From positions 1 to 40,979 of IMG/VR virus record IMGVR_UViG_2675903468_000003: DNA of 40,979 bases; one strand, 5' to 3'. Of the stretch, positions 39,229-40,979 are shown one piece after another. Every line of letters begins with the position of its first letter. Position 1 is the stretch's first letter. Origin of the DNA: a virus. Lineage: Duplodnaviria; Heunggongvirae; Uroviricota; Caudoviricetes. Below the pieces are notes generated by a model. That model worked only from the letters and a program-made list of their open reading frames with translations, did not search any database and was not told where the DNA came from. The translations under genes and the position numbers were made by a program.

Positions 39229-39506
39229 TGGACTCCTTCGCGAAATATACGATCATTGACTGGATAGCATTCCTTCAGGTTTTGCTAATCTGGTTTTATA
39301 TGGCTTACAGGAGTGGACAGTGGATTGTCAGTGAAGCCTGTAGCAAGGGATGGCGTTGGTGGAACCGAAAGAATAAAAAAGCACTGGCATTGGATTCGTT
39401 TTACGAAGCATTCAATCTTAACAGTCTTCAGCCAGGTTCTGTCATTGTAGTCACCACTCAAAGCGGCATGACCATTCAGATTCATAAACCAAAAGAGGAG
39501 AAATGA
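39228..39506 (+). CDS. Hypothetical protein with one predicted TM helix (92 aa)
   Basis: GGAGGTGAAG RBS; hydrophobic segment IIDWIAFLQVLLIWFYMAY. Start trimmed from the track ORF. Confidence 0.45.
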   Translation: MDSFAKYTIIDWIAFLQVLLIWFYMAYRSGQWIVSEACSKGWRWWNRKNKKALALDSFYEAFNLNSLQPGSVIVVTTQSGMTIQIHKPKEEK

Positions 39507-39592
39507 TGTGGCCTATATGTGTTAATTGCGGACGGATGTGCCTATCTGGATGGTGCCGAAAGTGCGACAAATGCACGAAGAAAAGACAATAA
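39503..39592 (+). CDS. Cys-rich micro-ORF (29 aa)
   Basis: Self-derived MMWPICVNCGRMCLSGWCRKCDKCTKKRQ with AAAGAGGAGAA RBS; start overlaps the upstream stop. Confidence 0.25.
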   Translation: MMWPICVNCGRMCLSGWCRKCDKCTKKRQ

Positions 39593-39664
39593 CAATCCTC
39601 GCATTCGCGGGGATTTCTTTTATCTGAACTCGCTACGGCGGGTTTTGTTTTATGGAGATGATAA

Positions 39665-39832
39665 ATGCACTTCCGAGTCACAGGTGAATGGAATGGAGAG
39701 CCATTCGACAGGGTTATCGAAGCAGAGGACATCAACGACTGCTATAACCACTGGATGATATGGGCGCAGATAGCGCATGCAGACGTAACCAATATTCGAA
39801 TTGAAGAACTGAAAGAACACCAAGACGCCTGA
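39665..39832 (+). CDS. Small hypothetical protein (55 aa)
   Basis: Self-derived MHFRVTGEWNGEPFDRVIEAEDINDCYNHWMIWAQIAHADVTNIRIEELKEHQDA with GGAGATG RBS-like sequence; followed by a weak hairpin and T-run. Confidence 0.35.
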   Translation: MHFRVTGEWNGEPFDRVIEAEDINDCYNHWMIWAQIAHADVTNIRIEELKEHQDA

Positions 39833-39850
39833 TGGCGGTTTTTTATTGCC

Positions 39851-39867
39851 TGATTTGCAGGTTCGAT
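39851..39867 (+). other. tRNA-Arg (argW-like) T-arm fragment
   Basis: ATTTGCAGGTTCGATTCC matches the argW segment AATTGCAGGTTCGATTCC (from memory) and then diverges. Not a complete tRNA. Confidence 0.4.
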
Positions 39868-39889
39868 TCCCTATTCGGAGATAGCACTC

Positions 39890-40090
39890 ATGCAACACGA
39901 ACTACAACCTGATTCACTGGTTGATTTGAAATTCATCATGGCCGATACTGGCTTTGGTAAAACCTTCATCTATGACCGGATTAAGTCCGGAGACCTGCCT
40001 AAAGCCAAAGTTATCCACGGGCGAGCACGATGGTTATATCGTGACCATTGTGAATTCAAAAATAAGCTCTTAAGCCGCGCTAATGGGTAA
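39890..40090 (+). CDS. AlpA/Xis-type DNA-binding protein (candidate excisionase)
   Basis: 66 aa MQHELQPDSLVDLKFIMADTGFGKTFIYDRIKSGDLPKAKVIHGRARWLYRDHCEFKNKL; AlpA/Vis-family HTH pattern; last phage-like gene before the att motif. Confidence 0.7.
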   Translation: MQHELQPDSLVDLKFIMADTGFGKTFIYDRIKSGDLPKAKVIHGRARWLYRDHCEFKNKLLSRANG

Positions 40091-40166
40091 AATAGCGGGT
40101 AAAATATTTCTCACATCTAAAAAACACCATTCCAATCAATCCCCTGCCGCCTCAAGTAGATGTCTG

Positions 40167-40180
40167 CAGGGGACACCAGA
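40167..40180 (+). other. Putative attR core (3' end of argW-like tRNA-Arg)
   Basis: TGCAGGGGACACCA equals the acceptor-stem 3' strand plus CCA of argW as recalled. Follows the AlpA-like gene, at the far end from int. Confidence 0.45.
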
Positions 40181-40566
40181 TACCCTTCAAACGAAATCTA
40201 CCTTCACCCCGTAAAAGATGGGTTTGGCAGCACACTTGCCTTATATCTACTCATTTTTACTGCAACAGGTTGAAATCTCAGCACTGTCAGAAAGCGCTGA
40301 TGACTAAACAGCCCTGGGCCGGGCGATGTAACCATCACACAGAATCCTGATAGCGAAATATGGCGTGACTCGATACTTCACTCCGCAATGCATTCCTTGA
40401 TGAATTCGCAGGACCGTGATACACGGGACAGGTCACTGAATGACGACAATGTCCTGGAAATCAGCGAACCGCGCATCTGAAGTACATTTGAGCGACTGTA
40501 CCAGAACATGAATGAGGCGTTTGGATTAGGCGATTATTAGCAGGGCTAAGCATTTTACTATTATTA

Positions 40567-40610
40567 TTTTCCGGTTGAGGGATATAGAGCTATCGACAAC
40601 AACCGGAAAA
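40567..40610. repeat. Perfect 11-bp inverted repeat with about 21-nt spacer
   Basis: TTTTCCGGTTG ... CAACCGGAAAA, immediately beyond the stop of the terminal minus-strand ORF. No U-tract. Confidence 0.4.
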
Positions 40611-40619
40611 AGTTTACGT

Positions 40620-40979
40620 CTATATTGCTGAAGGTACAGGCGTTTCCATAACTATTTGCTCGCGTTTTTTACTCAAGAAGAAAATGCCAAATAGCAACAT
40701 CAGGCAGACAATACCCGAAATTGCGAAGAAAACTGTCTGGTAGCCTGCGTGGTCAAAGAGTATCCCAGTCGGCGTTGAAAGCAGCACAATCCCAAGCGAA
40801 CTGGCAATTTGAAAACCAATCAGAAAGATCGTCGACGACAGGCGCTTATCAAAGTTTGCCACGCTGTATTTGAAGACGGATATGACACAAAGTGGAACCT
40901 CAATGGCATGTAACAACTTCACTAATGAAATAATCCAGGGGTTAACGAACAGCGCGCAGGAAAGGATACGCAACGCCAT
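40620..40979 (-). CDS. LacY-family (oligosaccharide:H+ symporter) permease C-terminal region, probably host flank; possibly partial
   Basis: ...LSTPTGILFDHAGYQTVFFAISGIVCLMLLFGIFFLS resembles the LacY C-terminal TM region. ORF starts at the last base of the window, so the 5' end may lie outside it. Confidence 0.5.
   Translation of the reverse strand: MALRILSCALFVNPWIISLVKLLHAIEVPLCVISVFKYSVANFDKRLSSTIFLIGFQIASSLGIVLLSTPTGILFDHAGYQTVFFAISGIVCLMLLFGIFFLSKKREQIVMETPVPSAI

Follow-up and report, generated by a model that had tools for sequence, protein, structure and literature searches.

Published Rho-dependent 3' ends in E. coli carry a stable stem-loop without a U-rich tail, followed by a mild excess of C over G downstream, and such 3'-end structures protect against PNPase and RNase II (PMC6061677). 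Intercistronic protective hairpins that bring about differential decay within an operon are likewise established, e.g., in malE-malF (PMC5927463). Within the csc gene cluster, the described inverted repeats are the operators of the LacI-family protein CscR, which are contiguous 12-bp palindromes of the sequence GTTAACGTTAAC in the cscK-cscA promoter region (PMC11251922). The insertion of csc between argW and dsdX was also already known (PMC3032704; PMC11251922).

We analyzed an inverted repeat near the end of a stretch of 40,979 nucleotides (referred to as the window, meaning the whole stretch at its full length). We propose that this repeat is the DNA image of a 3'-UTR stem-loop in the cscKB (fructokinase and sucrose permease) mRNA, a minus-strand transcript. 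Like the Rho-dependent 3' ends, the hairpin following cscB is stable, is near the stop codon, and has neither a U-rich tail nor an upstream A-tract. However, it is bipartite, with a long apical region and a total length of 44 nt. The published ends were mapped in K-12, which is without csc; that of cscB is predicted here from sequence. The resemblance to malE-malF comes from Citrobacter amalonaticus, in which the hairpin is between two same-strand genes and directly after the upstream one. The malE-malF element consists of multicopy REP sequences, while the cscB hairpin is unique to cscB. Intrinsic terminators that follow cscB in other bacteria, such as Raoultella, share the position and have a stem-loop of similar energy, but the cscB hairpin has no U-tract, has an A-run after the stem on both strands, and has a long apical region. 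Finally, the CscR operators are inverted repeats inside the same gene cluster. The half-sites of the cscB element are unrelated to them, are 22 to 26 nt apart, and are at a gene 3' end. Searching the literature for a cscB terminator, hairpin, or 3'-UTR RNA, we found no description, and likewise no Term-seq or 3' RACE data with and without bicyclomycin from a csc+ strain. The cscB hairpin is an undescribed but ordinary instance of a well-known class.

Position of the inverted repeat beyond the prophage

A repeat search and a direct string search both returned the perfect 11-bp inverted repeat reported in the original prediction, with arms TTTTCCGGTTG (40567-40577) and CAACCGGAAAA (40600-40610) that are 100% complementary. 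The spacer had been counted as 21 nt; this was wrong, and the spacer is the 22-nt sequence AGGGATATAGAGCTATCGACAA (40578-40599). The minus-strand ORF at 40620..40979 stops with TAG at 40622-40620, and the repeat begins 9 nt past this stop. Its placement after a permease ORF was thus correct. The features of this region, in the direction of cscB transcription, are as follows.

40620..40979, minus strand: 3' end of cscB, the last 119 codons of the sucrose:H+ symporter gene, which runs beyond the window edge
40611..40622, minus strand: cscB TAG (40622-40620), a second in-frame TAA (40616-40614), and a short linker
40600..40610, minus strand: 5' arm of the outer stem, which reads UUUUCCGGUUG in the mRNA
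40578..40599, minus strand: 22-nt spacer, predicted by folding to hold a 5x3 internal loop, an inner stem of 4 to 5 bp, and a variable apical loop
40581-40584 (GATA) with 40591-40594 (TATC), minus strand: inner stem, predicted by folding and invariant across homologues
40567..40577, minus strand: 3' arm of the outer stem, which reads CAACCGGAAAA on the cscB-sense strand and TTTTCCGGTTG on the plus strand
40552..40566, minus strand: last ~15 nt homologous to C. amalonaticus, corresponding to the linker and first codons (ATGCCAAAAT) of a methyl-accepting chemotaxis protein (MCP)-like gene
40463..40566, minus strand: candidate rut region, untranslated and C-over-G-rich as judged from C/G in 78-nt windows

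The tandem in-frame stops that close cscB read TAG ACG TAA (window 40614-40622, minus strand). In C. amalonaticus S646, the first of these is the sense codon GAA, and the conserved TAA serves as the stop.

Taken alone, the repeat is not beyond chance expectation. Dinucleotide-preserving shuffles of the window contained on average 0.57 perfect 11-bp inverted repeats with spacers of up to 40 nt, and 37% of the shuffles had at least one; the real window has two. The case for the repeat being real therefore rests on its position and conservation and not on repeat statistics. The other perfect 11-bp short-spacer inverted repeat of the window, GTATAATTCAT, is at 2136-2146 and 2171-2181 with a 24-nt spacer.

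To place the prophage boundary, we aligned the window with K-12, with the prophage-free csc+ strain KFu023, and with strains carrying other argW islands. The plus-strand gene at 39890-40090, torI, encodes the excisionase of a prophage of the KplE1/CPS-53 type. An argW-derived att core, CTGCAGGGGACACCA, is found at 40164-40178, 74 nt past torI, and K-12 homology stops there. This core is the equivalent of the K-12 “pawZ” pseudo-tRNA and marks the true prophage/host junction. The repeat is ~390 bp beyond the core and so is outside the prophage and in host flank, as had been proposed. Positions 40179-40619 are common to all csc+ strains aligned, whatever is integrated at argW. A prophage or att feature was ruled out, as the hairpin is also present in KFu023 (L005), in which argW is prophage free, and in strains with other islands. 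The csc regulon at this locus comprises cscB-cscK, cscA, and cscR, adjoining truncated dsdX and dsdA.

Between the att core and the repeat, positions 40322-40523 hold a ~200-bp internal fragment of a CP4-type-island DUF4942 gene, which is 73 to 76% identical to positions ~243 to 445 of intact 846-nt genes. RefSeq annotates a short ORF at 40388-40480, which in other strains reaches 40540, as “DUF4942 domain-containing protein.” Every csc+ E. coli has the fragment between argW and csc, which implies that csc was joined to a decayed CP4-like island. We also considered whether the hairpin might be part of the DUF4942 gene, with the two genes having convergent 3' ends. This was rejected, since the DUF4942 piece is an internal fragment; in addition, the Citrobacter hairpin stays with cscB where there is no DUF4942.

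A tRNA scan of the window returned none, an Rfam search of 39500-40979 at permissive E values gave no overlap with the repeat, and a promoter/terminator consensus scan called no terminator at the repeat. The scan gave a single weak promoter-like match (plus strand, 40537-40564, 9/12), which is expected by chance and lacks conservation in Citrobacter.

Distribution, conservation, and predicted fold

The original prediction had named absence from homologous loci as one finding that would speak against it. We searched 5426 complete E. coli genomes, 2645 of which contained the cscB 3' end. The hairpin segment (73 nt) was present in 2641 of these 2645 genomes, and it occurred at 2642 places in the 2641 genomes, i.e., as a single copy. 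The repeat is thus in essentially all homologous loci. Pattern scans of metagenome and viral contigs gave 113 true copies, all with the cscB stop context. The same scans gave 126 other loci with unrelated spacers of scattered lengths, which is the chance level for 18 fixed bases in contig collections this large.

Three C. amalonaticus genomes (L011 to L013; CscB 91 to 92% identical) have the same stem-loop after the cscB stop. Homology between E. coli and C. amalonaticus ends ~15 nt past the hairpin, and the DNA beyond is unrelated. In C. amalonaticus, a 370-amino-acid MCP-like gene (e.g., L013 4310-5422) has its ATG 5 nt past the stem and is followed by a convergent fbp, which suggests that the donor lineage paired sucrose catabolism with a chemoreceptor gene. 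The linker and first codons are retained in degenerate form in E. coli (ATAATAATAccAAAAT versus ATAACAATGCCAAAAT). This retained homology indicates that a C. amalonaticus-like arrangement gave rise to the E. coli csc module, whose end is near 40552. The cscB-side edge of the E. coli module is thereby fixed at ~15 nt past the hairpin, with a module of C. amalonaticus-like origin joined to the internal DUF4942 fragment beside argW. Straight after the hairpin (40552-40566), the cscB-sense strand reads TAA TAA TAG TAA, four stops in the same frame. This run is AT rich and probably just what is left, after mutation, of the linker and start codon in the Citrobacter-type order.

A further downstream flank was found in E. 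coli SCPM-O-B-8794 (CscB 95%), in which a ~130-nt deletion abuts the hairpin exactly. We rejected an independent insertion for this strain, as the argW context is the same, with a deletion. The hairpin is therefore kept by cscB with three downstream flanks: that of the main E. coli group, that of SCPM-O-B-8794, and the C. amalonaticus MCP-like gene. Judged from these comparisons, the hairpin belongs to cscB and not to another neighbor. In Escherichia sp. MOD1-EC7003 (L009 4282-4341), the end of an IS66-family element (GTAACCGGCTCATTTAAACCG...) is in the apical loop, and the arms are separated. Because a natural isolate carries this insertion, the element is not indispensable.

We then compared nine distinct sequences, made up of six E. 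coli lineages and three from Citrobacter. Of the cscB coding columns, 27% were variable. Divergence was very high over the last ~40 coding nt, where the final two 22-column blocks ahead of the hairpin contained 15 and 10 variable columns. In the arms, 2 of 22 columns varied, both in the outermost pair, and the inner 10 bp had no variable column (0/20). The spacer varied at 14 of 27 columns, while the inner GATA/TATC stem was invariant. Citrobacter has a 3-nt insertion in the apical loop, giving a spacer of 25 to 26 nt compared to 22 nt in E. coli (22 to 26 nt overall). Paired and unpaired columns differed significantly (Fisher P = 1.5e-6). Were the arms to vary at the coding rate, ≤2 variable columns among 22 would have a probability of 0.04; for the spacer rate, the probability would be 3e-5.

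RNAalifold predicted a bipartite hairpin of 15 pairs. The 44-nt hairpin folds at -16.6 kcal/mol, and the natural variants all fold at -15 to -19 kcal/mol on either strand. In its 101-nt context, the fold had z scores of -2.5 (cscB strand) and -1.55 (opposite strand). With G-C pairs at 5 of 11 positions, the outer stem is only moderately strong. The two outermost-pair variants point to opposite strands, giving U.G on the sense strand (S646) or U.G on the antisense strand (NCCP 13963). We looked for compensatory base changes across the nine sequences and found none, all pairs being invariant. The RNA structure is consequently supported by the placement of variation and not by covariation. The 5' half of the element (GTAAACTTTTTCCGGTTGTTGTCGATAG) shows more conservation than would be needed for a simple hairpin, a hint that some further or other constraint acts on it.

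The hairpin as a candidate 3' end of the cscKB message

With slightly more confidence than doubt, we read the repeat as a 3'-UTR stem-loop that protects or defines the cscKB mRNA 3' end after Rho-dependent termination. From its sequence, position, single copy, linkage to cscB, conservation pattern, and predicted fold, we infer a transcript end at the hairpin, its dependence on Rho, and a stabilizing effect. The RNA would form a 10- to 11-bp outer stem, a small internal loop, a 4- to 5-bp inner stem, and an apical loop that varies; its predicted folding energy is about -16 to -19 kcal/mol. The hairpin alone is probably no terminator because it has no U-tract. In E. coli, RNA polymerase would read on into untranslated, C-rich and G-poor pseudogene DNA, where Rho would terminate transcription. 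PNPase and RNase II, acting 3' to 5', would then trim the transcript back to the hairpin base and leave a defined, stable 3' end on the message. In what is likely the ancestral (Citrobacter-type) order, the element would be an intercistronic protective hairpin between cscB and the chemoreceptor-like gene, and it would also sequester the ribosome-binding region of the downstream gene.

On the cscB strand, C/G was 1.82 and 1.57 in the first two 78-nt windows past the hairpin and ≤1.1 further on. The DNA downstream of the hairpin is thus C-over-G-rich in the manner of a rut site, a property that is mild and nonspecific. As for a protective stem-loop, the structure is stable, is 9 nt past the stop, and has no U-rich sequence after it.

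More distant csc loci lack the hairpin sequence and have other stem-loops in the same slot after cscB. Canonical terminators are found there in Raoultella (GGCAATGTC...GACATTGCC and then TTTTTCTTT) and in contigs L021 and L019, and U-tract-less hairpins are found in Pluralibacter, Rosenbergiella, and C. freundii. That other stem-loops and terminators occupy this slot implies that it is functionally a transcript-end position. In the C. freundii csc locus (L268 2760-2810; cscB 61% identical), the stem-loop, GACAGGGCC...GGCCCUGUC, is strong and unrelated to that of E. coli; it has a C-rich tail, no U-tract, and a context z score of -4.9. It is a candidate Rho-type 3' end in its own right.

For basic biology, the weight of a 3'-end hairpin at cscB is small, as it would be a typical U-tract-less 3' stem-loop on a horizontally acquired sugar operon. 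The csc cassette is, though, widely transplanted for sucrose-based bioproduction. Constructs cut at the cscB stop lose the conserved 3' element, and the stability of the permease mRNA might be affected.

Competing explanations for the repeat

The element may instead have evolved as a regulator of the Citrobacter chemoreceptor-like gene, acting by sequestration of the ribosome-binding site or by translational coupling, and persist in E. coli as a leftover with little function. We consider this unlikely. The C. amalonaticus ATG is 5 nt past the stem, the only purine-rich bases resembling a Shine-Dalgarno sequence (GGAAAA) are inside the 3' arm, and the ~15 nt of homology into the start of the MCP-like gene is kept in E. 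coli, all of which would fit such an origin. However, the stems are invariant across E. coli lineages despite substitutions in the loop and flank and despite deletions, including the ~130-nt one that stops at the hairpin. The invariant stems suggest continued constraint in E. coli, an argument that is weak because divergence within E. coli is small.

It is similarly unlikely, in our estimation, that the hairpin is itself a noncanonical, U-tract-less terminator of cscKB, perhaps with help from NusA/NusG or pausing. In favor of this, the hairpin is both stable and conserved, and its position matches that of the canonical terminators after cscB in Raoultella and contigs L021 and L019. E. coli RNA polymerase needs a U-tract for efficient intrinsic termination, though, and the original prediction had judged a simple terminator unlikely on this ground. 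We agree, as there is no U-tract on either strand and the terminator scan calls nothing at the hairpin. Past the stem come UAAUAAUAGUAAAAUG on the sense strand and AGUUUACGUC on the antisense strand. On either strand, the GC core has the U-run on its 5' side and the A-run on its 3' side, which is opposite to the polarity of a terminator. Intrinsic terminators have a G+C-rich stem and a loop of 3 to 8 nt, whereas this stem has G-C pairs at 5 of 11 positions and encloses 22 nt, including the long apical region. Moreover, the C. amalonaticus gene starting 5 nt past the stem has no room for its own promoter, which argues for read-through.

Quite improbable is a double-stranded DNA dyad in the host flank, bound by a dimeric regulator or a nucleoid protein. 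This is the part of the original prediction that gained no support: its host flank location, its position after the permease, and the missing U-tract all stand, but the proposed protein-binding palindrome is not supported. Two perfectly conserved 10- to 11-bp half-sites and the unusual conservation of the element's 5' half would suit a dyad. Against it, the spacing of the half-sites shifts by 3 to 4 bp between E. coli (22 nt) and Citrobacter (25 to 26 nt), or about one-third of a helical turn, and the invariant inner GATA/TATC stem is unexplained by a dyad site. All variation is apical, the stems are invariant, and the spacer changes in length, which is the signature of a hairpin and not of a dyad with fixed geometry. 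The location is a gene 3' end with no conserved promoter nearby, and the half-site occurs nowhere else in the csc cluster or the window; scanning the 12.9-kb csc locus, we found only one match with 1 mismatch, inside dsdA. A CscR operator in particular was rejected by sequence comparison. We located the two CscR operators, GTTAACGTTAAC, at L001 8860-8871 and 8924-8935, in agreement with the published operator identity (PMC11251922, citing Jahreis et al. 2002). The half-sites of the cscB element are unlike these (PMC11251922), their spacing is wrong for such an operator, and they are at a 3' end.

We would give comparably little credence to two wider readings, in which the repeat is a dedicated cis-regulatory RNA element of csc or a structure-specific breakpoint that defines the edge of the transferred csc module. 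In the cis-regulatory version, the invariant 5' half, GUAAACUUUUUCCGGUUGUUGUCGAUAG, could be bound by a specific factor, tuning permease mRNA levels. In the ancestral Citrobacter-type arrangement, the hairpin might couple sucrose catabolism to the adjacent chemoreceptor by masking its ribosome-binding site.

Very improbable is a mobile feature at the DNA level, whether a REP-like element, the terminal inverted repeats of a miniature transposon, or a site of recombination that set the limit of the horizontally transferred csc module. Homology of the csc module ends 0 to 15 nt past the hairpin in three contexts, and one isolate carries the IS66-family element in the loop, both of which would suit such a feature. 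The element is nevertheless strictly single copy (2642 places in 2641 genomes) and is never away from cscB in the 113 metagenome and viral instances. No matching repeat was found at the far end of the csc cluster, and a target-site duplication is missing, since ...ATTATTA on one flank is not repeated directly by AGTTTAC... on the other. It matched no Rfam or known repeat family. REP/BIME, ERIC, and MITE elements and a transposon end were all rejected on the single copy, the lack of dispersed copies, and the missing target-site duplication.

A chance palindrome without function is the least probable reading of all. By chance, ~0.6 repeats of this type would be found per window, with one or more in 37% of shuffles; yet between E. 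coli and Citrobacter, the stems do not change where the flanking coding and loop positions do.
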